Source: Escherichia coli
GTDB taxonomy: Bacteria; Pseudomonadota; Gammaproteobacteria; Enterobacterales; Enterobacteriaceae
Strand: one strand, 5' to 3'
Assembly: GCA_005400705.1 (NCBI GenBank)
Contig: GCA_005400705.1_4079.1
Length of the DNA: 64,000 bases
Part shown: positions 41,417-59,608 of the stretch, in pieces
Layout of the letters: each line of letters begins with the position of its first letter
How positions within the stretch are numbered: the stretch's first letter is position 1
Translations under genes and position numbers: made by a program
The notes under the pieces: model-generated
Databases searched by the model: none
The model's input: the letters and a program-made list of their open reading frames with translations, nothing else
What the model was told of the DNA's origin: nothing

Positions 41417-42054
41417 TTAAACACAAGTAGACAGGGGAAGCTCCTAGTGAACAACCTTTATGTACAGGCGAATTGTTAAAATTCAGCCTGGACAAATGCG
41501 ATCACTAGGATTCTCCCCAGGCTAAACCCCGTAATCATAGGTAGTCATAAGTAATCATATATAAACATTTATATGAGCACCGTAGAATCACAGAATGATT
41601 ATATATGATTCAGTACTGATTAGTATAGACAAGATTGCTCAAGAATGCACGGAAATGTGTGTGAATGATTCAGTACTGATATCCCACTAAGTAGGCAGAG
41701 GAAGTCTGCCGTACTTTTTAGTTTCCAAGCTCCTTTTCCATTTTTCAAATTACATCAAATGTAATCAAAAGTAATCACGCAATGATTAGTACTGAATTAT
41801 TACTTTCACCTTAATTACAATTACCCTTTTACCCTTCGGGGTAAAATTCCATTACCCCTTGAGGCTCCAGCAAAAAGTTGGTTAGTACTCCATCCTAAAT
41901 CTCGATCCTAAAAATTTTGGAGTACCTATGAAATAAAAGTTGGATCTTCGAAAGTTGAAATTTACGTTGGGACGTTTATGATTTGTGGGATATAATGATG
42001 TTTGTAGTCGGGTAGTTCTCAAGAATATCAGTACTGAATGATGAAAGAAAGCTA

Positions 42055-42082
42055 TTGACTTTATGATTCAGTACTGTATAAT
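42055..42082 (+). promoter_or_regulatory. orphan promoter TTGACT-16-TATAAT with no ORF downstream
   Basis: ttgact 42055-42060, tataat 42077-42082, followed by gttttacat as in the PeSL-type promoters. Confidence 0.5.
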
Positions 42083-43797: not shown

Positions 43798-43860
43798 AGT
43801 ACTTGCAAACTAAGTTTAAAAGCGTATAATGTTTTACATCAGGTGGGGAATAGTTCCCCA
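43798..43860 (+). promoter_or_regulatory. PeSL-like cassette
   Basis: agtacttgcaaactaagtttaaaagcgtataat then hairpin tggggaa-tag-ttcccca 43844-43860. Confidence 0.6.
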
Positions 43861-43881
43861 CTATATAAGAGGATTAAAAAA

Positions 43882-44121: not shown

Positions 44122-44136
44122 TAGAATATATTTAAA

Positions 44137-44170
44137 GTACTATCGCAAAAAATGATAGTACTTTATAATA
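44137..44170 (+). promoter_or_regulatory. promoter with upstream palindrome AGTACTATC...GATAGTACT
   Basis: Palindrome 44137-44163, tataat 44165-44170; same design at 55759-55794. Confidence 0.5.
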
Positions 44171-44206
44171 GTGTTTTATTCATACACAAACGATAAGGGC
44201 AACAGC

Positions 44207-44473
44207 ATGAATATTAAGTATTTTGCGACGCGTGAACAAGCTCGGATCGCCGCACGCCAGGACGGGGCAACGTTTAAAGATATGGGCGTACAATCGGAAC
44301 GTGGTAAACGTTGGGCCATTATAAAGCGTAGTACCGCCAGATCATTACAGTACTGGTTAGCGGCGTTAAAAAGTCCTGATAGTGTATCGCGTCGAGTGGT
44401 AGAAATAAAGCTCGACCGAAAGGGCAACCGCGTGACCGTGTACCGTACTAAAAAGATAGCAGTACTTGAATAA
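44207..44473 (+). CDS. hypothetical protein (paralog of 55839 product)
   Basis: 88 aa; FATREQARIAARQDGATFKDMG ... DRKGNRVTVY shared with the 55839-56234 product. Confidence 0.55.
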   Translation: MNIKYFATREQARIAARQDGATFKDMGVQSERGKRWAIIKRSTARSLQYWLAALKSPDSVSRRVVEIKLDRKGNRVTVYRTKKIAVLE

Positions 44474-44474
44474 A

Positions 44475-44538
44475 AGTACTTGCATACTATGTTTAAAGGC
44501 GTATAATGTTTTACATCGAGAGCGGGAACACTTCCCGC
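44475..44538 (+). promoter_or_regulatory. PeSL-like cassette
   Basis: aaagtacttgcatactatgtttaaaggcgtataat, hairpin gcgggaacacttcccgc 44522-44538. Confidence 0.6.
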
Positions 44539-44559
44539 CTATAACCTGGAGTAATAAAA

Positions 44560-44790
44560 ATGACTAATATGTATATGACTGAAGTTAAAACTGTAAAAGA
44601 TACTACCACGAATAAAACTACTTACTTACAGCGGATCTGTGGTGTCTGGCAACGTATCAGCAAAATAAAGTACTATAAATTGACATCACATGCTAACCGT
44701 TCGGATTCATTCAGTACTGAAATAAAAGGTAATAAAGTACACCAATACGGCACTTATTATTATTATAGCCTGGATGCGATTGCAGTATAA
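44560..44790 (+). CDS. hypothetical protein
   Basis: 76 aa, RBS ggag. Confidence 0.55.
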   Translation: MTNMYMTEVKTVKDTTTNKTTYLQRICGVWQRISKIKYYKLTSHANRSDSFSTEIKGNKVHQYGTYYYYSLDAIAV

Positions 44791-44820
44791 GCAGTTTACA
44801 AATCTTTACAATTGCCGGTA

Positions 44821-44849
44821 TTGACTTATTTTGTCAGTACTGGCATAAT
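44821..44849 (+). promoter_or_regulatory. promoter TTGACT-17-CATAAT (AGTACTGG class)
   Basis: ttgact 44821-44826, agtactggcataat. Confidence 0.45.
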
Positions 44850-45032
44850 GTATTCATTGGCAGATAAGCCGTAGCCCATAGGGTGCGGGAGTGTATCTAT
44901 AGAAAAAGTAGTTTATTACAGTTACAATTGTGCACCCGGTGGGTTAGCTGTTGTCATGGGGTATATTATACCAGTACTGGATAGTGCTGTCAATACCTTT
45001 TTACTATTCAGTACTGAAAACTATTTTTAAAA

Positions 45033-45065
45033 AGTACTTGCAAACTATGTTTAAAGGCGTATAAT
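45033..45065 (+). promoter_or_regulatory. PeSL-type promoter driving the structured element
   Basis: agtacttgcaaactatgtttaaaggcgtataat. Confidence 0.55.
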
Positions 45066-45150
45066 GTTTTACATCAGGACGGGGAACGAAATAAGTAACT
45101 TCCCGTTAAGTAGCCCAGGAGTAAGGCACACGAAAAACTCCCCTGATAAA
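45066..45150 (+). ncRNA. candidate structured small RNA, copy A (identical copy at 54907-54990)
   Basis: No ORF; closing helix atcagg...cctgat and inner hairpin acgggga...ttcccgt; about 100 nt identical in both copies. Confidence 0.35.
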
Positions 45151-45155
45151 ATAGT

Positions 45156-45183
45156 TTGACAAATGTTTTTAAAAGCGTATAAT
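45156..45183 (+). promoter_or_regulatory. sigma70-type promoter TTGACA-16-TATAAT
   Basis: ttgaca 45156-45161, tataat 45178-45183. Confidence 0.55.
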
Positions 45184-45215
45184 ACTTACATCAACTACTG
45201 AATGAGGGTTACAAA

Positions 45216-45827
45216 ATGAAAACTATCACTACTACTACTTTCGTTATGGCTTTTTCTGAATTGAACGCAGAACAACAAACGTCAGCTATCGAACTGGTTC
45301 GGGATCGGGAACGTTCAAGCGGTGATGATTTCTTTTCTGAGTCAGTGATCGAGTACTATAAAGAAACAGTACTACCAGAATATGGAATTGATGACGCTGA
45401 TTTGCAATTCAGTGGTTTTTGGTCGCAGGGTGACGGTGCATCAATCAGTACTGACCACGTTGACGCTGTGAAGTTTTTACGCAAGATTAAAGCATTAACT
45501 AAGTATCGTTCTATCCGTCACCTGCTGAATGAAGATGATTTGGCGATGAGTGTAAAGCGTTCTCACTCCCACTACTCGCATGAAAACACTGTAAGCGGGT
45601 ACATTGAATCGGGGTACACTGATTTAACCGCAAAACAAGAAACGTTAGTTAATGAGCTTGAGGAACTACTCACTGAAACTATTCGTGAATTATCCCGCAA
45701 GTTGTACCGTGATTTAGAGAATGCATATGAGGATCAATTCACTACTGAAAACATTACGGCACTGATTGAGGGTAACGAATATCAATTCAATGTTATTGAT
45801 GGCGTAGTAGAATCTATCGAATATTAA
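45216..45827 (+). CDS. hypothetical acidic protein
   Basis: 203 aa, RBS gagggt. Confidence 0.6.
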   Translation: MKTITTTTFVMAFSELNAEQQTSAIELVRDRERSSGDDFFSESVIEYYKETVLPEYGIDDADLQFSGFWSQGDGASISTDHVDAVKFLRKIKALTKYRSIRHLLNEDDLAMSVKRSHSHYSHENTVSGYIESGYTDLTAKQETLVNELEELLTETIRELSRKLYRDLENAYEDQFTTENITALIEGNEYQFNVIDGVVESIEY

Positions 45828-45883
45828 TTCAGTACTGAATCAATGGCGGGAGTGGTTCCCGCCTATAACCAGGAGTAAGCATC

Positions 45884-46117
45884 ATGATCGAACAAATTCA
45901 AACGACCACAAGCCGGAGCGGAACGAAAGTACATTACATCGCTGATACTGATAAAGGTGTACCCTATTGTGCTGTACACGTAAATACTGACGGTGACTAT
46001 TGGTTAACTGTATACGGGCGTTACTCGTTTGCTTTTAGTGCACATTGTAAGATCCTGGAAGTAGTGAAGCCTACCGGTAAGAATATCACGCCGGGAAAAT
46101 GTTTTACTAAGCACTAA
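45884..46117 (+). CDS. hypothetical protein (paralog of 47039 product)
   Basis: 77 aa; GVPYCAVHVNT.G.YW.TVYG.YSF ... PTGKNIT shared with 47039. Confidence 0.6.
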   Translation: MIEQIQTTTSRSGTKVHYIADTDKGVPYCAVHVNTDGDYWLTVYGRYSFAFSAHCKILEVVKPTGKNITPGKCFTKH

Positions 46118-46118
46118 A

Positions 46119-46185
46119 AAGTACTTGCATACTAAGTTTAAAAGCGTATAATACTTTATATCGAGGCGGGGGAATGGTTCCCGCC
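46119..46185 (+). promoter_or_regulatory. PeSL-like cassette
   Basis: aaagtacttgcatactaagtttaaaagcgtataat, hairpin ggcggggg-aatgg-ttcccgcc. Confidence 0.6.
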
Positions 46186-46203
46186 TTTACTGAGGATTAT
46201 CTA

Positions 46204-46491
46204 ATGAGCAAAGTAATTAACTATACAGTACTAAGCAAGTCATTATCTATTAGCCAGTGCACCGATGGTTTTTGGCTGTACGATGAAACGCGTGGCATGA
46301 ATTTAGCTATGCGGGAGAAAACTGCTGAGGCGGCGTATTTACAAGCCCTGGAATACTACCAGGAACGTTTAAAGGAAGTAGAAAACAATTATCAAAATTT
46401 AAAAGAGAAAGTAGATAATTTCGTTTGTCAATTCGTTGACGATGACGAGGAAGACGGGCACTACTGCAACCGTTGCGGATCTTACAATTAA
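46204..46491 (+). CDS. hypothetical protein
   Basis: 95 aa from ATG 46204; C-terminal CNRCGSYN. Confidence 0.5.
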   Translation: MSKVINYTVLSKSLSISQCTDGFWLYDETRGMNLAMREKTAEAAYLQALEYYQERLKEVENNYQNLKEKVDNFVCQFVDDDEEDGHYCNRCGSYN

Positions 46492-46554
46492 GTACTTGCA
46501 ATTAGTTTTCAGTACTGTATAATGGTTTACATCAAAGGGAGAAATGGTTCTCCC
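46491..46554 (+). promoter_or_regulatory. PeSL-like cassette
   Basis: agtacttgcaattagttttcagtactgtataat, hairpin gggaga-aatggt-tctccc. Confidence 0.6.
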
Positions 46555-46573
46555 TGGTAATGAGGAAAATAAA

Positions 46574-46795
46574 ATGGCTAATATCACTACTCTTTCCCAA
46601 CTGGAAGCACTGGTTAAATCTATGCGGGAACATGCCGACAAAATCGGCGTACAAGATCCAGCCGTTTGCTTCTGCGACGAATTGAATGATGATACCCTGG
46701 TAATAGCAGAAGTCCAGGACGTTTCTAACTATTCCTCGCGTTACACTGGCGGCGTAGCAAATAAAGGTGACTTCTGTTTATACCTTACAAAATAA
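46574..46795 (+). CDS. hypothetical protein
   Basis: 73 aa from ATG 46574, RBS gagga. Confidence 0.55.
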   Translation: MANITTLSQLEALVKSMREHADKIGVQDPAVCFCDELNDDTLVIAEVQDVSNYSSRYTGGVANKGDFCLYLTK

Positions 46796-46798
46796 CAA

Positions 46799-46836
46799 CG
46801 CGGGGAGATAATAACTCCCCGTTACTTTTTCAGTAC
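46799..46836 (+). terminator. intrinsic terminator
   Basis: cgcggggag-ataataa-ctccccg then ttacttttt. Confidence 0.6.
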
Positions 46837-46958
46837 TGAATCATTTAATAGACGGATCTCGGCACCCGGTGGGTTAGTGACTGTTTCGTCTTGATGTAGT
46901 AATTATGCCAGTACTGGATGCACTTGTCAACAATTATTTTTCAAATACTTTTTATTAA

Positions 46959-47017
46959 AATACTTGCAATTAGTTTTTAAACGCGTATAATGTTTTGCAT
47001 AGGGGGAGCGGTTCCCC
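46959..47017 (+). promoter_or_regulatory. PeSL-like cassette
   Basis: tacttgcaattagtttttaaacgcgtataat, hairpin gggga-gcggt-tcccc. Confidence 0.55.
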
Positions 47018-47038
47018 TGGTAACTAAGGAATAATAAA

Positions 47039-47275
47039 ATGCTTGAACAAATCAAATCAACGTCTTCGAATGTAACGGGAACGGTAGCACACTTTACTAG
47101 TGATGAATCGCGGGGCGTTCCCTATTGTGCTGTACATGTAAACACTGAGGGTAACTACTGGTTTACGGTTTACGGTTCATATTCATTTGGACGGCCAGGG
47201 CATCAAAAAATTCTGGATAAAGTACAGCCAACGGGTAAAAATATCACTGCTGAAATGTTTTATAAAAAATCATAA
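47039..47275 (+). CDS. hypothetical protein (paralog of 45884 product)
   Basis: 78 aa, RBS aagga. Confidence 0.6.
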   Translation: MLEQIKSTSSNVTGTVAHFTSDESRGVPYCAVHVNTEGNYWFTVYGSYSFGRPGHQKILDKVQPTGKNITAEMFYKKS

Positions 47276-47276
47276 A

Positions 47277-47339
47277 GTACTTGCAATTAGTTTTTAGTAC
47301 TGTATAATATTTTACATCGCAAGGGGGAGCGGTTCCCCC
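47277..47339 (+). promoter_or_regulatory. PeSL-like cassette
   Basis: aagtacttgcaattagtttttagtactgtataat, hairpin ggggga-gcggt-tccccc. Confidence 0.6.
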
Positions 47340-47359
47340 TGGTAACTAAGGATAATCAA

Positions 47360-47659
47360 ATGAAAATTGCAATCATCGCCCTGGCTTTATCTGTTTCCTC
47401 TTTCGCTGTTAATGCGTCATTAGATGTAAGTAGTGAAAAATTCATTCAGTGCACTGTTGCAATGACCGATGAAAGTACTGGCGAGATTGTTTTAAAGGAT
47501 TTAGAGATCCAGCCCGAAGCATTTAAAAACGGGCCGTTCCATGAAGAAGACGAAAAAGGTAGCACGACAATTTATTACGATGCAAGTACTAAACGCGGTT
47601 CGGTCACTGTTATGGATACTGAGAAAGTAACTCATACTGGCGTTATTAATTGCCGTTGA
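47360..47659 (+). CDS. secreted protein (signal peptide)
   Basis: 99 aa, signal peptide MKIAIIALALSVSSFAVNA. Confidence 0.55.
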   Translation: MKIAIIALALSVSSFAVNASLDVSSEKFIQCTVAMTDESTGEIVLKDLEIQPEAFKNGPFHEEDEKGSTTIYYDASTKRGSVTVMDTEKVTHTGVINCR

Positions 47660-47680
47660 TAGATACTACGGGGTAACATC

Positions 47681-47911
47681 ATGACTAAGCGAATTGTTTT
47701 ACTTAACGAAAGCAGTACTACACAACTACTTAACGCCGTGCATTATGATATTGAAACGAGCGTTAATCTTATCAGTACTGTAGTACTGTTGGACACTGGA
47801 AAGGTCGCCAATGATAAAGCGATTGCAGGTATACTAACGGATCTTGAGCCTGGTAGCAGTGCACCAATAACGTTAAATGGTAAAGTGTTTAATATTTTAC
47901 TCACTGATTAA
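47681..47911 (+). CDS. hypothetical protein
   Basis: 76 aa. Confidence 0.5.
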   Translation: MTKRIVLLNESSTTQLLNAVHYDIETSVNLISTVVLLDTGKVANDKAIAGILTDLEPGSSAPITLNGKVFNILLTD

Positions 47912-47917
47912 GTACAT

Positions 47918-47941
47918 AGCCCACCTGGTGGGCTTTTTTGT
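47918..47941 (+). terminator. intrinsic terminator
   Basis: agcccacc-t-ggtgggct then T6. Confidence 0.7.
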
Positions 47942-47992
47942 TTTTGTAGTATCGTAGTACTGAGATACTTTGAAAATAGTTTTAAAAAATAG

Positions 47993-48020
47993 TTGACATT
48001 ACCGCAGAAAAGCGTAGAAT
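47993..48020 (+). promoter_or_regulatory. sigma70-type promoter TTGACA-16-TAGAAT
   Basis: ttgaca 47993-47998, tagaat 48015-48020. Confidence 0.5.
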
Positions 48021-48143
48021 GTATTACATCAAGACGGGGAGCACTAAGTAGACCGCCAGTAAGTCGAACGAAAAACTGGACACGTCGAGAAAACTTTGAT
48101 ACACTAATAAACGTAAACTAAACTTTAATTGAGGATTTATAAA

Positions 48144-48626
48144 ATGGCTAATGTAAAATCATTCATCAAAGCACTGGTAGCAAATGAAACTAACGTCGCG
48201 GCAGAGATCCTGGCTGATCTGGATAACGATACCATGAAAGCGGTACGCAATAATTTTAACATCGCTTATAGTACTGCGAAAGAACTACAAGCAAATAAAG
48301 CGGCAGAAATTGAAGCGGCAAAGGCGGCCCGTGAAGCAGAACTACAAGCAACAATTGAAAGTATCCAGGCGGCAGTAGTTGGATTGGATCTGGAAGTAGT
48401 TACAGAGATGGCACAAAAAGCCCTGGCGGTTAAGTATGGGGAAGATAAGCCGGAATCTAAGCCTAAAAAATGGATTCAAAAACGTGTAGCGGTAGTACTG
48501 GACAACGGGGAAGAATATCTGATTCCGGTGCGTGGTAACTGCATTGCGGTAGTACTGGATGCGATTAACTCCAGTGGTATGACTCGCGAGGAATGGATCG
48601 AAGCTCATCGCAAAGTTGAAGCATAA
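48144..48626 (+). CDS. hypothetical protein
   Basis: 160 aa from ATG 48144 (RBS gagga); alternative start 48129. Confidence 0.55.
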   Translation: MANVKSFIKALVANETNVAAEILADLDNDTMKAVRNNFNIAYSTAKELQANKAAEIEAAKAAREAELQATIESIQAAVVGLDLEVVTEMAQKALAVKYGEDKPESKPKKWIQKRVAVVLDNGEEYLIPVRGNCIAVVLDAINSSGMTREEWIEAHRKVEA

Positions 48627-48647
48627 CAATTAAAGTACTGAATCACT

Positions 48648-48675
48648 AGCCCACCTTAAACGGTGGGCTTTTTTG
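48648..48675 (+). terminator. intrinsic terminator
   Basis: agcccacc-ttaaac-ggtgggct then T6. Confidence 0.7.
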
Positions 48676-48823
48676 TGTTTATCGTTTACCAGGCCACCAG
48701 CACCGCCTAGAAACGATTCTAACGCATTAAACTGATTATCTGATGCATTGCCCTAGCTGGTGGCGTTAAGGCTGTAAGAACGCGATTGAGAGCGTTTAAA
48801 GTATTTTGCAAAAAGTAATAAAA

Positions 48824-48888
48824 AGTACTTGCACGATTAAGAGATTAGCGTATAATGTTTTACATCGAGAGGGGGAAACGGTTCTCCT
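48824..48888 (+). promoter_or_regulatory. PeSL-like cassette
   Basis: aaagtacttgcacgattaagagattagcgtataat, hairpin ggggaa-acgg-ttctcc. Confidence 0.55.
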
Positions 48889-48911
48889 TCCAAATCAAAG
48901 GAATTAAAACA

Positions 48912-49139
48912 ATGGCTATCGTAATCACTCGCGTAACTGGTACTACTGGCAATTCTTCTACTGTTGCTGTAATTACTAATAAGAAAGGTGCGGAATTGCA
49001 TTTTGCAATGGATAAATGGGCCGTTAATGAGTTCGGTCAGTGGGCAAGTGTAGCATACATTGAAACCTATCAAGTGCCGTCGATTAGTTTAACTGATTTG
49101 GGCGTTGAGCGTATCCTTTGCCTGGATGAATTAAATTAA
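48912..49139 (+). CDS. hypothetical protein
   Basis: 75 aa from ATG 48912, RBS aaggaa. Confidence 0.55.
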   Translation: MAIVITRVTGTTGNSSTVAVITNKKGAELHFAMDKWAVNEFGQWASVAYIETYQVPSISLTDLGVERILCLDELN

Positions 49140-49140
49140 A

Positions 49141-49206
49141 AAAGTACTTGCAAAGTAAATCAGATAAAGTATAATACATTACATCAAGGGGAGAAATGGT
49201 TCTCCC
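49141..49206 (+). promoter_or_regulatory. PeSL-like cassette
   Basis: aaagtacttgcaaagtaaatcagataaagtataat, hairpin gggaga-aatggt-tctccc. Confidence 0.6.
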
Positions 49207-49225
49207 TGATAATGAGGAAACTAAT

Positions 49226-49369
49226 ATGAAAACTTGTCAATGTGGTAAAAAATCTATTACTGGTTTAAAGCGGGGCGTTGCACTTTGCCAGTACCATTAT
49301 AATTTACAAGTATGGGGTAAAGAATGGGCCGACCAGGTGGAAGCAGCAAAGAAAGCAAAAAGTAAGTAA
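49226..49369 (+). CDS. small Cys-containing protein
   Basis: 47 aa (below cutoff), RBS gagga; CQCG...C..H. Confidence 0.45.
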   Translation: MKTCQCGKKSITGLKRGVALCQYHYNLQVWGKEWADQVEAAKKAKSK

Positions 49370-49388
49370 AAATATTATCACAGTACTA

Positions 49389-49417
49389 TTGACATAGTTT
49401 GATAGTACTGGCATAAT
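49389..49417 (+). promoter_or_regulatory. promoter TTGACA-17-CATAAT (AGTACTGG class)
   Basis: ttgaca 49389-49394, gatagtactggcataat. Confidence 0.5.
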
Positions 49418-49450
49418 AGATTTTATCAAGACAACTAAGAGGAAATTAAA

Positions 49451-49795
49451 ATGGCTAATATCAACACTATCGCAAAACAAAATATCAACCTGTCTTCTGT
49501 TGAAGTTGTACATATTGCCGCTCGGCGTTGGTTCCAGGCTTCATATGGTAACACTTATTTCTCTTTAAGTGTAGACGTAGAAATTGATGGTAATTTTATT
49601 GAAGTAGTAAACGTGCCGTTCCAATATGGATACGGGGATCACTTTGACACTGTAGCAATGGAAGAATTTAGCAAGGTTATTAATATGGAAGATAAGGAGT
49701 TTACACGCGGATCGTACCTTTCACGTTTTTGCCGTGATAATAATATCACTGTTTACAGTTCGGTAACTGATGTTAAACGCAAAAAAGATCTTTAA
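49451..49795 (+). CDS. hypothetical protein (paralog of 55420 product)
   Basis: 114 aa; shared features incl. C-terminal DVKRKKD. Confidence 0.55.
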   Translation: MANINTIAKQNINLSSVEVVHIAARRWFQASYGNTYFSLSVDVEIDGNFIEVVNVPFQYGYGDHFDTVAMEEFSKVINMEDKEFTRGSYLSRFCRDNNITVYSSVTDVKRKKDL

Positions 49796-49875
49796 TTCGC
49801 TTTACTTTATGCAGATACTTTGATATAGTGTCTGCATAGGGGAAAGAAATTAAATTAACTTAAGAGGAACGTATA

Positions 49876-50145
49876 ATGAAAAATATCAGTACTTTAATCG
49901 ATGCAGGTACACATGTTCGGCGGTCAATGGTTGCAACCAGTACTACAAAACAAGTAGCGAGCGGTTATCTTGTATTTGTGCACGATGGTAAACTCCTGGA
50001 ACGTTCAATCAATTTTGATGTTAAAAACAATTGCCGTTTTATTATCTTTCGCCGTGAACAATATAAGATCGACATTCCAGCGAAGCCCATTAGCGGTGCG
50101 TACAACGTGCAATCATTGTTTGAGCGTCAACCATACACCTATTAA
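49876..50145 (+). CDS. hypothetical protein
   Basis: 89 aa, RBS agagga. Confidence 0.5.
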   Translation: MKNISTLIDAGTHVRRSMVATSTTKQVASGYLVFVHDGKLLERSINFDVKNNCRFIIFRREQYKIDIPAKPISGAYNVQSLFERQPYTY

Positions 50146-50196
50146 TCAAAACATCGTTAGCGGTTGATTTAGGCCGCTTATATTGAGGATTATACC

Positions 50197-50469
50197 ATGA
50201 ACGTTAATCAAGTACTGAATGAGATCGAAAGCATCATTAAACCGATGAAGCGTACTGATGCTATGTTAACACCGGAAGAATGCCGCCTATATGAGCGTTA
50301 TAGCGTCGAACAAGTCCAGGCAATGGCTATGGCTACCACAGCCGTTAAACCGCCTGAGAATGCGTTACAGGACGTTACAGGGGATTATATCATCAATCCA
50401 GTACTAGGGAAGATGGCTGCAATCACCGAAGATCAACAAGACTACTTAAGCCAGTACTTAAAAGGTTAA
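50197..50469 (+). CDS. hypothetical protein
   Basis: 90 aa, RBS gagga. Confidence 0.5.
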   Translation: MNVNQVLNEIESIIKPMKRTDAMLTPEECRLYERYSVEQVQAMAMATTAVKPPENALQDVTGDYIINPVLGKMAAITEDQQDYLSQYLKG

Positions 50470-50474
50470 TTAAT

Positions 50475-50684
50475 ATGCTTACTGTACAGGATAAGATCGA
50501 CATCTTAAAGGTTAATATGTATGTGATTGATGCCGTACCTGGTAAAGTATTTGCATACGATGATAGTACTGTAAGCGATTTCTACTATAGCCAGGACGTG
50601 GGGGATCTTTCTGTACAGTCGGTTATTGAAAACGTAGTTAATGCAGCGTATGAGCATTTACTTTCAAATAGTACTTGCAATTAG
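50475..50684 (+). CDS. hypothetical protein
   Basis: 69 aa. Confidence 0.45.
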   Translation: MLTVQDKIDILKVNMYVIDAVPGKVFAYDDSTVSDFYYSQDVGDLSVQSVIENVVNAAYEHLLSNSTCN

Positions 50685-50734
50685 TTTTTAAACGCGTATA
50701 ATGTTTTACATGAAGGGGAGAAATGATTCTCCCC
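50670..50734 (+). promoter_or_regulatory. PeSL-like cassette
   Basis: agtacttgcaattagtttttaaacgcgtataat, hairpin ggggagaa-atga-ttctcccc. Confidence 0.6.
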
Positions 50735-50753
50735 ACTAATTAAGGAATATGAA

Positions 50754-50900
50754 ATGAAAGCATCAAAAAAGAGTAATACCAAGAAAGCATGTTCACCTTT
50801 CGCTGGGGTATTCCCTTTACGTTTCGTTGATGAAGTGGTTTCCTACCCGCCGGGCCTTACTCCTGAGATGGTAGAAAGTTTGCGTAAATCTAAAAAATAG
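50754..50900 (+). CDS. small basic protein
   Basis: 48 aa (below cutoff), RBS aagga. Confidence 0.4.
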   Translation: MKASKKSNTKKACSPFAGVFPLRFVDEVVSYPPGLTPEMVESLRKSKK

Positions 50901-50963
50901 TACTTGCAATTAGTTTTCAGTACTGTATAATGTTTTACATGAAGGGGAGAAATGATTCTCCCC
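50899..50963 (+). promoter_or_regulatory. PeSL-like cassette
   Basis: agtacttgcaattagttttcagtactgtataat, hairpin ggggagaa-atga-ttctcccc. Confidence 0.6.
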
Positions 50964-50981
50964 AATAACAGGAGAAACAAA

Positions 50982-51134
50982 ATGAAACAATACAACGCTC
51001 GGTTTGATGTTACTATCGGTAACGGCAAAGGTCAATTCTCTTTCAGTACTCGCAAAAGTTATACAGAAAACTTCCTGCGTAATTGTGCACTGACCGCCGC
51101 TCAAATTAAACATTACTTTCAGGCTAAAAAATGA
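50982..51134 (+). CDS. small protein
   Basis: 50 aa from ATG 50982, RBS aggaga. Confidence 0.45.
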   Translation: MKQYNARFDVTIGNGKGQFSFSTRKSYTENFLRNCALTAAQIKHYFQAKK

Positions 51135-51220
51135 AATCATTAGCTTACTATAGTTCGGCCCTGGTCGGTACATTGATCGCGGCATTGTTAGTAACCTATC
51201 TATTCTTTATGGTGATTTAA
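51131..51220 (+). CDS. small hydrophobic peptide
   Basis: 29 aa, ATGA overlap, single TM helix. Confidence 0.25.
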   Translation: MKSLAYYSSALVGTLIAALLVTYLFFMVI

Positions 51221-51364
51221 ATGAATCCAACAGGTTTAAATTATAAAAGTTGTTCGGCGTTTACGAAAGCAAATAAAGCGAATGCACGTAAAGCGAAAGT
51301 ACAGGAATACATCAAGCAAGGCATGACGCGAAAGGCGGCGATTCTAAAAGCTAAAAATAAATGA
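51221..51364 (+). CDS. small basic protein
   Basis: 47 aa, start abuts upstream stop. Confidence 0.35.
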   Translation: MNPTGLNYKSCSAFTKANKANARKAKVQEYIKQGMTRKAAILKAKNK

Positions 51365-51371
51365 AAAAAGT

Positions 51372-51402
51372 GGTTGACTCCGGTCAGCCATTTTGCTATT
51401 AT
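51372..51402 (+). terminator. fused terminator-promoter (GGTTGAC-TCCG-GTCAGCC)
   Basis: Hairpin 51372-51389, TTTT, tattat 51397-51402. Confidence 0.6.
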
Positions 51403-51488
51403 ATATTCATTGAGAGATAGCTCACTAGCCCACAGGGTGCATAAGTGTATCTATTATATAAGTATTGAGTACTGAAAACTATTTTTAA

Positions 51489-51554
51489 AAAGTACTTGCA
51501 AACTATCTCAATTGGCGTATAATGTTTTACATCGCAAGGGGAAACGGTTTCCCC
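51489..51554 (+). promoter_or_regulatory. PeSL-like cassette
   Basis: aaagtacttgcaaactatctcaattggcgtataat, palindromic stem ggggaaac-g-gtttcccc. Confidence 0.6.
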
Positions 51555-51574
51555 TGGTAATAAGGAAACGAATC

Positions 51575-51916
51575 ATGACTATCTCAATTGCTCAATCTAA
51601 CTTTGAAAACGAAATCATCGCCCAGGCACTGCGTTTAAATGATGGTCGGGCCGAAATTAATTACGGTTTCAATTCAGGCGGTTGCGAAAAATATCAGTAC
51701 TTTGTAACGGCTGATGGCGGTGTCCTGGGGATCAATACAGTTATTGTAAACATTCAGAAAATTAATTTCAATGATCCAGAAGATAGCCAGTTTTACATCA
51801 CGGGCGTGAACGTGAACTATGAGGATGATTATCTAACTGATGATCACACTGGCGAGAAGTTAGAAAGTGCATACGGTGAAGATGATTATCAGTCCGGTCC
51901 AGAAGATTTTGAATAA
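51575..51916 (+). CDS. hypothetical acidic protein
   Basis: 113 aa from ATG 51575, RBS aagga. Confidence 0.55.
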   Translation: MTISIAQSNFENEIIAQALRLNDGRAEINYGFNSGGCEKYQYFVTADGGVLGINTVIVNIQKINFNDPEDSQFYITGVNVNYEDDYLTDDHTGEKLESAYGEDDYQSGPEDFE

Positions 51917-51930
51917 TATTAAAAAATAGT

Positions 51931-51990
51931 TTGACAATAGATTATAGTACTGTATAATAAGTTACATCAAGGGGAGAAATGATTCTCCCC
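51931..51990 (+). promoter_or_regulatory. PeSL-like cassette (TTGACA-16-TATAAT)
   Basis: ttgaca 51931-51936, tataat 51953-51958, hairpin ggggagaaatgattctcccc 51971-51990. Confidence 0.6.
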
Positions 51991-52010
51991 ACTAACAAAG
52001 AGAAAACAAA

Positions 52011-52223
52011 ATGGCTAATATCTGCACTGTACTGAAAAATGCAAAACAAGTTTTATTTTCTGATCATGAAAATTTCAACAAGGATATTACGGGCGTTCGG
52101 AATATCAAAGATGTAAAAAGTGTTATGGGTATCTATTGCAATATGAAACGTGTTGGTACGTTCGGCGACAAAGTACTATACCAGGCAGGGGATTATAACT
52201 TTACATTAACCATTATCAATTAA
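52011..52223 (+). CDS. hypothetical protein
   Basis: 70 aa. Confidence 0.55.
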   Translation: MANICTVLKNAKQVLFSDHENFNKDITGVRNIKDVKSVMGIYCNMKRVGTFGDKVLYQAGDYNFTLTIIN

Positions 52224-52241
52224 AATATATTACCAGTACTA

Positions 52242-52270
52242 TTAACAATGATTGATAGTACTGGCATAAT
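52242..52270 (+). promoter_or_regulatory. promoter TTAACA-17-CATAAT (AGTACTGG class)
   Basis: gatagtactggcataat. Confidence 0.45.
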
Positions 52271-52314
52271 AACTTTTATCAACAGTAGTTAACTTAACAA
52301 AAGAGAGAAACAAA

Positions 52315-52458
52315 ATGATCGCACTAGATTCATTCATCGACGCAGTACTGGCAAAAACTGGCGAGGATCTGACCGCAGAACAATACGCGATGATCGAACA
52401 ATGTCAGCAAAACGGTAAATCGGTGAAAGATACTGTTAAGATTATCCGCAAGATGTAA
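52315..52458 (+). CDS. small protein
   Basis: 47 aa (below cutoff), RBS agagag. Confidence 0.4.
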   Translation: MIALDSFIDAVLAKTGEDLTAEQYAMIEQCQQNGKSVKDTVKIIRKM

Positions 52459-52563
52459 GATTATAGCCCACTGGTTAACGCTGGTGGGCTATAATTCATT
52501 ACCCTATACAATGCCAGTACTCAACCGTTTATCTCGTTAGAATGCGTTACAGGACGTTTACCA

Positions 52564-52761
52564 ATGATTAGCATGAAATCAGTACAAAAACAAATAGAAA
52601 CATTATCAAAAATTAAACGTAAACAGTACTCGTTAGAATATACAATCAATGGTAACTATCATCTAATGAAAGAGAATAATTTTATCGTCATTGATGAATC
52701 ATTGCAAGTTATTAGTATAGTACTGAAAGCATTAATCAATGACAGAAAAAAATTAAAATAA
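52564..52761 (+). CDS. hypothetical protein
   Basis: 65 aa. Confidence 0.45.
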   Translation: MISMKSVQKQIETLSKIKRKQYSLEYTINGNYHLMKENNFIVIDESLQVISIVLKALINDRKKLK

Positions 52762-52765
52762 TCTA

Positions 52766-52794
52766 TTGACAATATCCTCCAGTACTGGCATAAT
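52766..52794 (+). promoter_or_regulatory. promoter TTGACA-17-CATAAT (AGTACTGG class)
   Basis: ttgaca 52766-52771, agtactggcataat. Confidence 0.5.
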
Positions 52795-52856
52795 ACTTAC
52801 ATCAAGACGAGAACGTCACCAACCCATAGGGTGCACAAATGTAACTATATAATATC

Positions 52857-52929
52857 GATCAATAAATGATCAAAAAAGTACTGGATCAATTTAGCATAAG
52901 GCGTATAATTCTGATCAATTCTTGATCAA
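52857..52929. repeat. cluster of five (T)GATCAA repeats (GATC sites)
   Basis: gatcaa at 52857, 52868, 52884, 52913, 52924, flanking a tataat at 52903-52908. Confidence 0.5.
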
Positions 52930-53090
52930 AGGCAATATACGCAGTTGAATTTATATAGACAGTACAAAGGCGTTACTATCCGTGGTAATGCTGGTGGATA
53001 TGTAGTATCATATGGTTTGAATAAGATAAACACTAGTAGTATTATTGTAGCATTACAGTACTATAGTATTTTTATAATGAGGTTAAAATA

Positions 53091-53348
53091 ATGGCAGTAG
53101 GATACGCGAAAGACGGGGCCGAACAAGACGAGATTCATGCAGTGATTCAGGCCGCCGTTAACCACGCTAGAAAGCAAATTAACGCACAAAGAGAATCACT
53201 GGTACATTGCCTCGACTGCGGCGATAAAATTCCTGAGAATCGACGCCAGGCCGTTATAGGGTGCATGTATTGTATTACTTGCCAGGAGGATCATGATAGT
53301 ACTTTTAAAAGAGATCCGCGTAATTGTTGGCATAGATCTATGAGATAA
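53091..53348 (+). CDS. TraR/DksA-family C4 zinc-finger protein
   Basis: 85 aa; CLDCGDKIPENRRQAVIGCMYCITCQ gives CxxC-x17-CxxC as in TraR/DksA. Confidence 0.65.
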   Translation: MAVGYAKDGAEQDEIHAVIQAAVNHARKQINAQRESLVHCLDCGDKIPENRRQAVIGCMYCITCQEDHDSTFKRDPRNCWHRSMR

Positions 53349-53354
53349 AAAGTA

Positions 53355-53383
53355 ATTGACAGTACTGAAAGATAGTGTATAAT
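53355..53383 (+). promoter_or_regulatory. sigma70-type promoter TTGACA-17-TATAAT
   Basis: ttgaca 53355-53360, tataat 53378-53383. Confidence 0.55.
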
Positions 53384-53412
53384 GTTTTATATCTTAACTG
53401 AGGATAGAAATC

Positions 53413-53769
53413 ATGGGAATACAACATATCACGCGTACTACTGACAATGGCGAGATCACTGGTTATCAAGTACAGGGCAAAGTAGCACAATTGCAGTACT
53501 GGTTTGTTAAACGTGGAATCATTGCACCGGATCTTGATTATGACCGTGTAGCGTTTATTGATTCTCTTTATGTTGATCCTGATAGTCGGGGCAATGGTGA
53601 AGGTAACGAATTAATGAATGCCTTTATCGATGCCGCCGATGATTCAGATTGTATCATCTTAGAATGCGATACGGGAGAAGATAACGCCTTTAATCTTAAA
53701 GAATGGTACGAAGGTTTCGGATTCGAGGTATTGATAGATAGTGAATATCCTATCATGATTTTATCATAG
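53413..53769 (+). CDS. hypothetical protein, possibly GNAT-like acetyltransferase
   Basis: 118 aa; IDSLYVDPDSRGNGEGNELMNAFIDAA loosely resembles GNAT motif A. Confidence 0.5.
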   Translation: MGIQHITRTTDNGEITGYQVQGKVAQLQYWFVKRGIIAPDLDYDRVAFIDSLYVDPDSRGNGEGNELMNAFIDAADDSDCIILECDTGEDNAFNLKEWYEGFGFEVLIDSEYPIMILS

Positions 53770-53830
53770 TACTTGCATTTAGTTTTCAGTACTGTTATAG
53801 TACTTGCATCAAGGGGAAACATCTTCCCCT
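53768..53830 (+). promoter_or_regulatory. PeSL-like cassette (degenerate -10)
   Basis: agtacttgcatttagttttcagtactgttatag, hairpin aggggaa-acatc-ttcccct. Confidence 0.45.
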
Positions 53831-53847
53831 ACTAAGAGGAAATAAAA

Positions 53848-54036
53848 ATGGAAAACTTATCAAGTATTTTAGTACAAGATGATTTCGGTAATCCTGGAAG
53901 TGCTATCATTGTTCGGGGTAATAAAGCAACGTTTGTTATTGCTGGTGGACCCGTACAGCGTAGCATTAAAAATAATGCTGTTACCATTAATAATGTACGC
54001 TATCGCTTAGATAAAGAATTGATTCATAAACTGTAA
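53848..54036 (+). CDS. hypothetical protein
   Basis: 62 aa, RBS agagga. Confidence 0.5.
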   Translation: MENLSSILVQDDFGNPGSAIIVRGNKATFVIAGGPVQRSIKNNAVTINNVRYRLDKELIHKL

Positions 54037-54044
54037 AAAAGTAC

Positions 54045-54104
54045 TGGACAATAGATTATAGTACTGTATAATAAGTTACATGAAGGGGAGAAATGATTCT
54101 CCCC
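54045..54104 (+). promoter_or_regulatory. PeSL-like cassette
   Basis: tggaca-16-tataat (54067-54072), hairpin ggggagaaatgattctcccc. Confidence 0.55.
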
Positions 54105-54122
54105 AGTACTGAGGAAAGAAAA

Positions 54123-54335
54123 ATGCAAGGTCAACTAATCGTTCGTAAATGGTCTGATACTAACGCTAAACCGTGGGATGTACAATACATCGGCCCCAAT
54201 GGTGAATCCAGATATCAACCAGGTGTAACGCATAGTACTGAGCAATTCGCCGCCGCTCATCGTGAACGTCTGTTACAATCAATGCAGCAAGGTTCCGGTG
54301 AAAAATTCATTCAGGATCATTGGCTGAAAGATTAA
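54123..54335 (+). CDS. hypothetical protein
   Basis: 70 aa from ATG 54123, RBS gagga. Confidence 0.55.
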   Translation: MQGQLIVRKWSDTNAKPWDVQYIGPNGESRYQPGVTHSTEQFAAAHRERLLQSMQQGSGEKFIQDHWLKD

Positions 54336-54336
54336 A

Positions 54337-54400
54337 AAGTACTTGCACAGTACTGAATAAAGTGTATAATGTTTTATATCGAGAGGGGAATAGTTCCCCT
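54337..54400 (+). promoter_or_regulatory. PeSL-like cassette
   Basis: aaagtacttgcacagtactgaataaagtgtataat, hairpin gaggggaa-tag-ttcccctc. Confidence 0.6.
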
Positions 54401-54421
54401 CCTAACAAAAAGGAAAGTATA

Positions 54422-54595
54422 ATGATCCAAGTAGAATTATCAGTACTGAAAGATCTATTTTATCGGTTAGGTACTAATGGCGAGTATCCTAAAAGTGATA
54501 CCGCAAAACTTTTTGTATCACTCGACTTATGGCAACGCGAACAATTAGTAATGTCGTGGCGTAAAGGTAAAGCAGATCGCGAGGTGAAAGCATGA
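54422..54595 (+). CDS. small protein
   Basis: 57 aa from ATG 54422, RBS aaggaaag. Confidence 0.45.
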   Translation: MIQVELSVLKDLFYRLGTNGEYPKSDTAKLFVSLDLWQREQLVMSWRKGKADREVKA

Positions 54596-54741
54596 AAGAA
54601 TTCTTATTTGAAGTAGTGTTTCAAGGTGTCGGTAATAACCAACTGATTCGATCAAGTGGTTATAATGTTAACCAGGCATGGAATAACATTAAACAAATGT
54701 ACCCTAACGCTATCACCTATCGCAACCCGAAAGAAGTTTAA
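54592..54741 (+). CDS. small protein
   Basis: 49 aa, ATGA overlap. Confidence 0.35.
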   Translation: MKEFLFEVVFQGVGNNQLIRSSGYNVNQAWNNIKQMYPNAITYRNPKEV

Positions 54742-54755
54742 AAATAATTGAAAAA

Positions 54756-54789
54756 GGGATTGACTCCGGTCAGTCCCTTTGCTATTATA
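54756..54789 (+). terminator. fused terminator-promoter (GGGATTGAC-TCCG-GTCAGTCCC)
   Basis: Hairpin 54756-54777, TTT, tattat 54784-54789. Confidence 0.6.
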
Positions 54790-54873
54790 TACGCATAGAA
54801 ACAAATCAGCCCACCGGGTGCATAAATGTATCTATTGTTTGCTGGTGGCTAGTACTGAAAACTATTTTTAAAA

Positions 54874-54906
54874 AGTACTTGCATTGTACTTAGAATCAAG
54901 TATAAT
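54874..54906 (+). promoter_or_regulatory. PeSL-type promoter driving the structured element
   Basis: aaagtacttgcattgtacttagaatcaagtataat. Confidence 0.55.
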
Positions 54907-54990
54907 GTTTTACATCAGGACGGGGAACGAAATAAGTAACTTCCCGTTAAGTAGCCCAGGAGTAAGGCACACGAAAAACTCCCCTGATAA
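54907..54990 (+). ncRNA. candidate structured small RNA, copy B
   Basis: Sequence identical to 45066-45150. Confidence 0.35.
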
Positions 54991-54996
54991 AATAGT

Positions 54997-55024
54997 TTGA
55001 CAATAGAAAGTAAACGAGTATAAT
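54997..55024 (+). promoter_or_regulatory. sigma70-type promoter TTGACA-16-TATAAT
   Basis: ttgaca 54997-55002, tataat 55019-55024. Confidence 0.55.
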
Positions 55025-55057
55025 ACTTACATCAACCACTGATAAGGAAACATTAAA

Positions 55058-55333
55058 ATGCGGATTCTACTGACAGCTAACGAAATCGAACAAGTACTGA
55101 CTACTAACCTGGAACAATGGAAACGTGATGCAGATATCCAGGCGGTTCAATGGCTTAACGATAAGTTAACGCCGGATGACTTAAGCAAGATTGTAGATCC
55201 TCAATTCTACGAAGATATCCACGACACCGCGTTAAGCGTCGAGGATGTACTTGATAAGCACTACATTGATACTGATTTACAGGTTTACGGTCGTAAAAAC
55301 TTTATCACTATCCACGACATTTACAATAATTAA
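55058..55333 (+). CDS. hypothetical acidic protein
   Basis: 91 aa, RBS aaggaaa. Confidence 0.55.
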   Translation: MRILLTANEIEQVLTTNLEQWKRDADIQAVQWLNDKLTPDDLSKIVDPQFYEDIHDTALSVEDVLDKHYIDTDLQVYGRKNFITIHDIYNN

Positions 55334-55336
55334 GTA

Positions 55337-55398
55337 TTGACAAAGTATCTTAGTACTGTATAATAGTTTACATCAAGTGAGGGGAAACGGTTCCCCTC
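55337..55398 (+). promoter_or_regulatory. PeSL-like cassette
   Basis: ttgaca-16-tataat (55359-55364), hairpin gaggggaaacggttcccctc. Confidence 0.6.
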
Positions 55399-55419
55399 CT
55401 AACAAAGAGAGAAATAAAA

Positions 55420-55743
55420 ATGGCTATGATCCTTACCCAGAAAGTAGAACTGAAAATTGTAACCTCCTTTGACATTAAAGTTAATCGCTGGACTGATCGG
55501 AACGGCAATACTTACCACTCTTGCTACGTGTCTGCATTGATTGGTGATCGTTGGGAAGACCTGGGACACGAAACTTTTACATACGGTTACGGTACGCAAG
55601 GCGAATACACGGGCTTGGAGATCATTAAAGAAACCGTTATAGGTTTCAACCCGAAAGAAAAAGTTATTCACCGCATCGAAAAAGAGATTAACAAAGAAAT
55701 AACAGTTCGCTACTACGATGTAAAACGTAAGAAAGACATGTAA
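55420..55743 (+). CDS. hypothetical protein (paralog of 49451 product)
   Basis: 107 aa, RBS agagag. Confidence 0.55.
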   Translation: MAMILTQKVELKIVTSFDIKVNRWTDRNGNTYHSCYVSALIGDRWEDLGHETFTYGYGTQGEYTGLEIIKETVIGFNPKEKVIHRIEKEINKEITVRYYDVKRKKDM

Positions 55744-55758
55744 TAGAATCCATTTAAA

Positions 55759-55794
55759 GTACTATTTGACATTACACAGATAGTACTTTATAAT
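55759..55794 (+). promoter_or_regulatory. promoter with palindrome AGTACTAT...ATAGTACT
   Basis: ttgaca 55766-55771 inside the palindrome, tataat 55789-55794. Confidence 0.5.
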
Positions 55795-55838
55795 AGACTC
55801 TAGCTTGTAGTACTAACTTAACTAATAGGATGTATACC

Positions 55839-56234
55839 ATGATTACTAAATTCTACGCTACCCGTGAAGCTGCCCGTATTGTTGCACGCGAGGAAGGAGC
55901 AGCATTTAAAGACATGGGCAAAGATGCACCGAAAGGCCAACGCTGGGCCGTACAGTTCAAAGAGATCTCTGATATTGTGAATTCACCGGAGCCAGTACTG
56001 ACAGCAGCAGAACAGAAGAAAGCTGATGAACTGTCAGCAGTTCTTAACGCTCAAGATGACTTTATCGCGGGTTCTGATATTAAAGTTTCCGTAAATTCGA
56101 ATGCATGGACTCACGCGGATCATCTGGCTAACTTGAAGCGTCCAAGTGTACTGATTCGCAACCAACGAGAGATCCGCCACGACCGCAAGGGAAACAGTGT
56201 TACTGTATTCAGTAAACGCCGCCAGGTTATCTAA
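55839..56234 (+). CDS. hypothetical protein (paralog of 44207 product)
   Basis: 131 aa from ATG 55839, RBS agga. Confidence 0.55.
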   Translation: MITKFYATREAARIVAREEGAAFKDMGKDAPKGQRWAVQFKEISDIVNSPEPVLTAAEQKKADELSAVLNAQDDFIAGSDIKVSVNSNAWTHADHLANLKRPSVLIRNQREIRHDRKGNSVTVFSKRRQVI

Positions 56235-59560: not shown

Positions 59561-59579
59561 AAGTTTTATTTCAGTACTA

Positions 59580-59608
59580 TTGACATAGCTTGATAGTACT
59601 GATATGAT
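59580..59608 (+). promoter_or_regulatory. promoter TTGACA-17-TATGAT (AGTACTG class)
   Basis: ttgaca 59580-59585. Confidence 0.45.

Follow-up and report, generated by a model that had tools for sequence, protein, structure and literature searches.

Two paralogous genes (44207-44473 and 55839-56234), both members of phrog_8127, a family of unknown function, are preceded by palindromic promoters in a 64,000-nucleotide stretch of DNA (hereafter the window) from contig GCA_005400705.1_4079.1 of the Escherichia coli assembly GCA_005400705.1. Here, we propose that the palindromic promoter represents a class (class P) of AGTACT-based composite promoter/stem-loop intergenic cassettes, a variant resembling the PeSL cassettes of T4-type phages, and that the promoter was duplicated together with its gene; we put the probability of this reading at about 45%. 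Cassette duplication would explain the shared palindromic promoter before the paralogs, and autoregulation is then not needed. An earlier note on this DNA had read the palindrome as an operator, possibly autoregulated by the products of the paralogs, which is the least supported of the explanations considered below.

Positions 43800-47800 are 88-96% identical to Escherichia jumbo phages of the 121Q/PBECO4 group, and judging from this sequence match, the window is part of an Asteriusvirus (121Q/PBECO4-like, RaK2-related) jumbo coliphage; 121Q itself is classified in Asteriusvirus. Approximately 45 small co-directional genes, almost unannotated, occupy about 42-62 kb of the window (43-62 kb in the cassette test), and the same small-gene layout is found in 121Q and in Klebsiella phage RaK2. 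In the related phage CBB, a block of short hypothetical genes with RpoD-like promoters and UP-like elements was proposed to be the early region (PMC5259590). The relatives compared were 44 kb of 121Q (L004), 49 kb of RaK2 (L017), GAP32 (L020), the metagenomic loci L005 and L008, L010, and the contig L133, and about 180 kb of RaK2-like phage sequence was examined. An Rfam scan of the window matched no family.

Class P elements in the window

As the earlier note had reported, the palindrome AGTACTAT-N-ATAGTACT-T-TATAAT is present before both paralogs. At site 1, AGTACTAT (44136-44143) and ATAGTACT (44155-44162) are followed by T and TATAAT (44164-44169), and the corresponding positions at site 2 are 55758-55765, 55780-55787, and, again after T, 55789-55794. 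TATAAT thus follows the palindrome as described, but one T intervenes at both sites. The perfect inverted repeats exceed those first recognized. Element 1 (44133..44169, + strand) has 12-bp arms, TAAAGTACTATC (44133-44144) and GATAGTACTTTA (44154-44165), with a loop of 9 nt; it begins 11 nt past the upstream stop codon, and its AGTACT lies 14 nt past it. Element 2 (55755..55794, + strand) has 11-bp arms, TAAAGTACTAT (55755-55765) and ATAGTACTTTA (55780-55790). The -35 had been placed under the palindrome in both cases. This holds for site 2, a perfect TTGACA-17-TATAAT promoter with TTGACA (55766-55771) between the arms, inside the loop, but not for site 1, where no acceptable -35 is present at 16-18 bp.

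The design is shared by the two paralogs but is not restricted to them; three further copies, all on the + strand, lie at 49382, 52235, and 59573. The element before 49451-49795 (phrog_6246) spans 49381..49417 (CAGTACTAT..ATAGTACTG; TTGACA-17-CATAAT with a TG extended -10), that before 52315-52458 (phrog_34103) spans 52233..52270 (CCAGTACTAT..ATAGTACTGG; TTAACA-17-CATAAT), and that before 59636-59893 (an unclassified gene) spans 59571..59608 (TCAGTACTAT..ATAGTACTGA; TTGACA-17-TATGAT). In the window, genes outside phrog_8127 thus account for three of the five copies. The pattern AGTACTAT-N(5-25)-ATAGTACT was found five times in the window, compared with 0.00 matches in 100 shuffles. A related element with a different stem extension, 42029..42082 (+ strand; CAGTACTGAAT..ATTCAGTACTG, 11 bp), carries TTGACT (42055-42060) in its loop and TATAAT at 42077-42082, and it is conserved in 121Q and L010.

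The class P elements are similarly placed with respect to genes and promoter boxes. They start 11-14 nt past the upstream stop codon and end 36-52 nt before the start codon. The 3' arm abuts or overlaps the -10, and the -35, where present, lies in the loop. Four of the five have sigma-70-like -35/-10 boxes (10-12 of 12 matches, 17-bp spacer), and three have a TG extended -10. From start to start, the two AGTACT words are 19-24 bp apart, except in one ortholog, where the distance is 31 bp.

Conservation, complementarity, and folding

Among six orthologs of site 1, TTTAAAGTACTAT (TTAAAAGTACTAT in 121Q) and GATAGTACTTTATAATA are unchanged, TATAAT included. The segments between them (CGCAAAAAAT, TGCACGGT, CATTCTATGC, TGCACGGG, or CATTTTTTTTGC) are unrelated in sequence and leave 9, 9, 9, 11, 11, and 13 nt between the 8-mers, and the leader diverges too. 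The lack of an acceptable -35 at 16-18 bp is common to the window and five orthologs. In the orthologs of site 2, three loop positions are changed and the arms are unchanged, and the inner segment of the 52235 element is 12 nt here and 21 nt in the 121Q ortholog (a 9-nt insertion). Invariant arms around an inner segment that is free in sequence and length are predicted for a stem-loop and not for a rigid operator of two half-sites. As judged from these alignments, the dyad element before the paralogs is not a chance occurrence and is subject to purifying selection. Where AGTACTAT and ATAGTACT lie close together, the two 8-mers are inverted in 5 of 5 cases in the window and 7 of 7 in 121Q, apart from a direct pair at a distance of 31 nt and a pair that overlaps.

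Complementarity extends beyond AGTACT by different bases in different elements: TAA/TTA outside and ATC/GAT inside at site 1; CC/GG (52235), TC/GA (59573), and GAAT/ATTC (42029) elsewhere in the window; and GAATA/TATTC, GGA/TCC, ACC/GGT, and ATTTT/AAAAT in RaK2. The standard promoters of the region (described below) that have two AGTACT words 20 bp apart show exactly 6 complementary bases. In an alignment of 19 element sequences, 98.6% of the cells pair, and the covariation score was reached by none of 500 shuffles. The outermost pair is C-G in 12 sequences and A-U in 7 with no mispair, and at the inner pair, 15 sequences have U-G and 4 have C-G. Because the sequences are related and the core is invariant, we regard the covariation as moderate support. 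When the flanks of 93 distinct AGTACT pairs were re-paired, at least 3 extra pairs were observed in 23, compared with a mean of 10.6 and a maximum of 20 in 2000 trials.

Folded as RNA, the five elements gave -14.0, -15.3, -15.4, -17.2, and -16.1 kcal/mol (z of -4.6 to -6.0), and these energies were matched by none of 200 shuffles; two standard promoters, each with two AGTACT words, gave -4.2 and -4.7 kcal/mol with z near zero. G-U pairs extend the class P stems in the sense strand only, which hints at an action as RNA. The stems contain 2-4 G-C pairs and are followed by the tails UAUAAUAG or CAUAAUAG. Intrinsic (Rho-independent) termination was ruled out for class P on account of its A+T-rich stems and missing U-tract, and a DNA-hairpin promoter of the N4 type was set aside on loop length, which is 9-21 nt here and 3 nt in N4. 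No terminator was found between the upstream stop codon and the class P hairpin.

Duplication and distribution of the cassettes

Outside the arms, too, the cassettes of the two paralogs are alike in sequence. The similarity begins at the final codon and stop codon of two unrelated upstream genes (ATGTAATAGAATnnATTTAAAGTACTAT ... GATAGTACTTTATAATAG) and runs through TATAATAG, past which the sequences diverge. In L010 (positions 2884-3009; a GCA_958319075.1 contig of 346757 bp), the upstream gene and palindrome of site 1 are joined to the leader of site 2 and a gene resembling the second paralog (63% identity), an arrangement that looks like a product of recombination between the two paralog cassettes. 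The shared flanks and the L010 hybrid fit duplication and recombination of promoter-plus-gene units.

Seven class P copies were found in the 44 kb of 121Q, two of which precede phrog_8127 genes and five other genes. The 49 kb of RaK2 has two canonical copies plus variants, and more are present in the metagenomic relatives. A palindrome scan of IMG/VR gave, among the matches listed, mostly single chance hits in unrelated contigs, and the matches listed also include L133, a further AGTACT-rich contig. With regard to phrog_8127, a class P element precedes both copies in 121Q and the homologs in L010 (63% identity) and L005 (43% identity). In RaK2 and L008, the homologs are served by a standard promoter, which has a single CAGTACTG and a leader hairpin, and the palindrome is absent. 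The Asteriusvirus copies and L010 carry one class P sub-type by descent, and L005 has two class P elements with identical loops before different genes, one being the phrog_8127 homolog. Since the sub-type is inherited and the L005 loop duplicates that of its neighbor, about two independent associations remain in four lineages; considering that class P makes up about one-ninth of the promoters, this co-occurrence is not compelling.

Proposed mechanism

The observations comprise the repeat family, how it is conserved, its potential to fold, and the shared flanks; from them we infer an action as RNA along the following lines. A sigma-70-type promoter would be wrapped in a stem-loop, with AGTACT as the core of the stem, the -35, where there is one, in the loop, and the 3' arm at the -10. 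Because the genes are arranged head to tail with few terminators, transcripts reading through from upstream should contain the whole element. The start site of the element itself lies downstream of the 3' arm, and the class P hairpin is therefore expected only in read-through RNA. This RNA would fold into a hairpin of 12-18 bp a few bases past the upstream stop codon, where it may attenuate or end the upstream message or act as a processing or 3'-protecting structure for it. The same DNA would start a new transcript just downstream of the hairpin. Promoter and gene would be duplicated or recombined as one cassette, so that the paralogs carry the same sub-type. Since the sharing follows from cassette duplication, the product need not read the element.

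Several points weigh against this proposal. Read-through and an RNA role of the class P elements are assumed in it. A hairpin leaves the occurrence of AGTACT at fixed offsets in ordinary promoters and in coding sequence unexplained. The core arms are invariant, so that the covariation rests on two or three flanking positions of related sequences, and a flank shuffle confined to the window was not significant (9 observed, mean 4.5, maximum 12). The U-G pairs that lengthen the stems use the T of TTGACA and are perhaps fixed by the promoter itself. Finally, a terminator scan called none of the class P elements, whose stems are A+T-rich and without a U-tract.

Enrichment of the AGTACT word

No hexamer is more frequent in the window than AGTACT, which occurs 299 times against 21.6 expected (~14-fold, ~4.7 sites per kb), and the next palindromic hexamer is only 2.7-fold enriched. 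Symmetric flanks are favored: CAGTACTG occurs 74 times in the window, ~108-fold over expectation. AGTACT itself is unevenly distributed. Its density peaks in two places, 40-90 nt ahead of start codons and 0-20 nt past stop codons, and stays at ~4 per kb within genes. In 25 long open reading frames (ORFs), 64 copies were counted, compared with 18.1 (standard deviation 3.6) after synonymous-codon shuffling. In dozens of promoters, AGTACT is found at offsets of -27, -7/-8, -16/-17, and -50 from the -10. The excess is 13-fold in 121Q, 15-fold in RaK2, where AGTACT is also the commonest hexamer, and 6-fold in GAP32 (a block of middle and late genes), and it is also seen in metagenomic relatives including L005 and L008, thus spanning three genera of RaK2-like phages. 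Given that short palindromes are usually avoided in phage genomes, an excess that reaches ~14-fold in the window, is common to three genera, and is selected within genes is unusual. A full-text literature search found no published description of AGTACT or CAGTACTG enrichment in phages, and nothing relevant on Asteriusvirus promoters.

One E. coli site with an AGTACT core is that of SlmA (GTGAGTACTCAC). SlmA was rejected as the reader of the word because the flank counts do not fit, G being the rarest base before AGTACT (28 of 299). The LexA and TrpR sites were judged by eye to misfit on flanks or spacing.

Products of the paralogous genes

The paralogy of the two genes was borne out by BLASTP (6e-17, 34% identity) and by the assignment of both to phrog_8127 (2e-26 and 5e-35). 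Paralog A (44207..44473, + strand) encodes 88 amino acids with an isoelectric point (pI) of 11.0, and paralog B (55839..56234, + strand) encodes 131 amino acids with a pI of 9.7. The start of paralog B was taken as 55839 and not 55830 because the homologs begin with MITKF. The proteins have the N-terminal 40 and C-terminal 30 residues in common, and B is longer by a 45-residue insertion. A tblastn search found no third phrog_8127 copy in the window.

AlphaFold predicted for both products an N-terminal beta-alpha-beta-beta unit and a C-terminal beta-hairpin with one or more helices between them (predicted local distance difference test, pLDDT, 75.7 and 81.0; predicted template modeling score, pTM, 0.31 and 0.41). 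The DNA-binding domain that an autoregulatory operator would call for was looked for in these fold predictions, and no DNA-binding fold was recognized. Neither product contains a Pfam domain, and the BFVD structure matches are limited to uncharacterized jumbo-phage proteins (RaK2 and Erwinia phages). When 1.84 billion representatives were searched with a profile, 73 relatives of phrog_8127 were retrieved, all short but one, an 892-amino acid protein with a weak partial match (E = 8e-4). No informative domain fusion was seen among the 73, and ten distant relatives gave nothing above threshold in Pfam. Three arginines, R9, R13, and R17, are invariant or near-invariant, and their spacing puts them on one face of the first helix. 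Considering these arginines and the basic character of the proteins, it is possible that the products bind nucleic acid, with no pointer to the palindrome as the target.

Alternative explanations

The distribution of AGTACT raises the main rival explanation, which does not depend on RNA: a factor encoded by the phage or, less likely, the host may read AGTACT, itself a palindrome, on the duplex arms and act as a global repressor or activator of many early promoters, without being the phrog_8127 product. A class P element would then have two of these sites, one on either side of the -35 and spacer. We consider this unlikely, although several observations fit it. The word keeps fixed offsets from the -10 in promoters whose complementarity stops at 6 bp, which points to selection on AGTACT other than for a hairpin in ordinary promoters. 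Its rank as the commonest hexamer, with CAGTACTG flanks of the symmetry typical of a dimer site, its excess over synonymous shuffles in coding sequence, and its excess in RaK2 and GAP32 agree with such a reader, and site 1 keeps its arms without a -35 as if an activator were substituting for it. This explanation, however, has no named binder, and the flanks misfit the SlmA site. The arm spacing of 19-31 bp is out of helical phase, and two independent 6-bp sites account neither for the TAT/ATA extension toward the inside nor for the covariation of the outer flanks. Moreover, the density of sites corresponds to well over 1000 in a genome of ~350 kb, which would titrate a specific regulator. A more far-reaching version, which we find distinctly doubtful, makes AGTACT, preferably as CAGTACTG and present about once per 200 bp, a clade-wide signature word of RaK2-like phages, with a dedicated phage protein that reads it on the duplex and class P as the strongest double sites of this protein. 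If this were true, the protein could mark phage DNA as self, organize the phage chromosome, or switch the whole set of early promoters.

The palindrome might also have no function of its own and consist of two promoter-associated AGTACT words maintained by common descent, the longer arms being kept by gene conversion among cassettes. Sub-types that share flanks, and even loops, within a genome indicate copying of this kind, and the window-only shuffle is compatible with it. The explanation is nevertheless improbable: the arms are invariant in six phages while the loop and 5' leader diverge, class P is retained in relatives at a protein identity of only ~43%, and the close 8-mer pairs are inverted in 12 of 12 cases. 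Very improbable, finally, is the proposal of autoregulation, in which phrog_8127 proteins would control their own promoters by binding the palindrome. It would account for the presence of class P before both paralogs, the 121Q orthologs, and the L010 and L005 genes, and the very basic proteins with R9, R13, and R17 on one helix face would suit it. Against it, class P precedes unrelated genes more often than phrog_8127 genes, the RaK2 and L008 homologs have no class P element, and the remaining associations shrink to about two once the inherited sub-type and the L005 copy, which equals its neighbor, are considered. The fold, Pfam, and BFVD results do not indicate a DNA-binding protein. As the palindrome is one type of a repeated AGTACT cassette, a private switch for two paralogs is unlikely, and because the distance between the arms is not fixed (19-24 bp, 31 bp once), a rigid dimer on two half-sites is not favored.

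Other cassettes of the early region and further features of the window

The standard early promoter consists of aaaaAGTAC-TTGCAA or TTGACA, a 16-bp spacer, frequently with cAGTACTg at its end, and TATAAT. It is followed by the leader gttttACATCAA and then, just past the likely start site, by a conserved hairpin of the ACATCAAGGGGAGA..TCTCCCC (GGGGAGA..TCTCCCC) type. About 27 such sites with the leader hairpin lie in 43343-61000 (e.g., 50675-50740, 51931-51995, and 58374-58440). GGAG, which is present in the leader hairpin, is the motif cut by T4 RegB. Class P differs from the standard promoter in its 17-bp spacer, its frequent TG extended -10, and the absence of the leader hairpin. A G+C-rich 12-bp hairpin, AAAGGGATTGACTCCGGTCAGTCCCTTT-GC-TATTAT, is present in four copies (51367-51402, 54753-54788, 57754-57789, and 60199-60234; + strand for 54753..54788) and has a -35 (TTGACT) within the stem and then a TG extended -10 (TG-TATTAT). 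By analogy, the AAAGGGATTGACTCCGGTCAGTCCCTTT hairpins correspond to the classic PeSL type, as terminator-like promoter cassettes. The intergenic spaces are occupied by cassettes of classes S, P, and H, and the early region is built from at least three promoter-plus-hairpin cassette classes.

Further paralog pairs are found in the early region (45884-46117 with 47039-47275; 49451-49795 with 55420-55743). The latter, phrog_6246, pair has class P at 49382 and a standard promoter at 55337. Because this pair uses two promoter classes, promoter class is generally not tied to gene family. An ORF of 194 amino acids at 57158-57742 has motifs that by eye are reminiscent of protein kinases (GAGSSRIVF..VIKV, VLDYGL).

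Approximately 1.3 kb at 42100-43330 contains no convincing ORF. Tandem repeats of 8-48 bp, with units such as GACGGCTAAACGGCTAGATGG, occupy 42496-42595, and AGTACT-containing repeats are also present within 42100-43330. The 121Q counterpart is an unannotated gap (L004 9195-11162), and direct terminal repeats are annotated near the counterpart in one relative; this segment could be an origin or a genome end. On the minus strand, 27678-37332 holds an array of eight paralogous ORFs of ~370-420 amino acids, the 121Q counterparts of which are annotated as RCC1-like, and a hairpin of the GCCAGTAtcaAGTACTGGC type follows several of them. On the + strand, 12 copies of the E. coli Chi octamer GCTGGTGG were counted (3942, 20280, 42278, 48756, 52480, 52990, 53941, 54841, 56922, 58514, 60092, and 60314; ~52-fold over expectation), compared with two on the - strand. 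Ten of the 12 + strand copies are in the early region, and this oriented excess may serve as protection against RecBCD.

Comparison with known systems

The lambda OR/OL and P22 Arc/Mnt operators are dyads that overlap promoters, have a fixed half-site spacing, and are read by a dedicated repressor with a known DNA-binding fold. Class P resembles them in that the -35 and spacer of its sigma-70 promoter are covered by an inverted repeat. Unlike these operators, it has variable spacing, is common to unrelated genes, and has no evident repressor. The MotA box of T4 is a single asymmetric motif centered at -30 and is read by MotA with AsiA. T4 middle promoters and site 1 are alike in combining a phage-specific motif with a sigma-70 -10 where the -35 is missing, whereas AGTACT is palindromic, stands at two or more positions, and occurs throughout coding sequence. 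The early RNase III sites of T7 are longer, irregular hairpins free of promoters. Like class P, they are intergenic hairpins in a co-directional early operon, and in both cases the hairpins would separate or stabilize messages. Class P differs in containing promoters, and cleavage of its hairpins is conjecture.

The closest resemblance in the architecture discussed here is to the promoter-early stem-loop (PeSL) cassettes (Arbiol, Comeau and Krisch 2010; Comeau et al. 2014). PeSL stem-loops lie between, overlapping, upstream of, or downstream of the -35/-10 boxes (PMC2839356), and PeSL cassettes of T4-type phages mediate the shuffling of ORFan genes (PMC2839356, PMC4122927). Both PeSL and class P fuse strong sigma-70-like promoters with an A+T-rich upstream region to a stem-loop that lies between the -35 and -10 or over either box, and both recur in many copies among the small ORFan genes of a plastic early region. 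Correspondingly, class P elements show a stable stem-loop within or overlapping the promoter (-14 to -17.2 kcal/mol) and a recurrent intergenic position between small early-region genes. PeSL cassettes travel with genes and recombine, and the L010 hybrid, the identical L005 loops, and the shared flanks of the paralogs would be consistent with shuffling by class P. The stems are different: those of PeSL are typically polyG/polyC and were shown to terminate transcription, whereas those of class P, known from sequence alone, are A+T-rich, AGTACT-based, and without a U-tract. The class P stem word is also hyper-abundant, and the description of PeSL includes no genome-wide excess of a stem word. 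Furthermore, the phage carrying class P is a RaK2-like jumbo phage and not a T4-type phage, and only RpoD-like promoters with UP-like elements were reported there (PMC5259590). Our proposal would thus extend the PeSL idea from T4-type to RaK2-like phages and provide a handle on the shuffling of the hundreds of ORFan genes in their 350-kb genomes.

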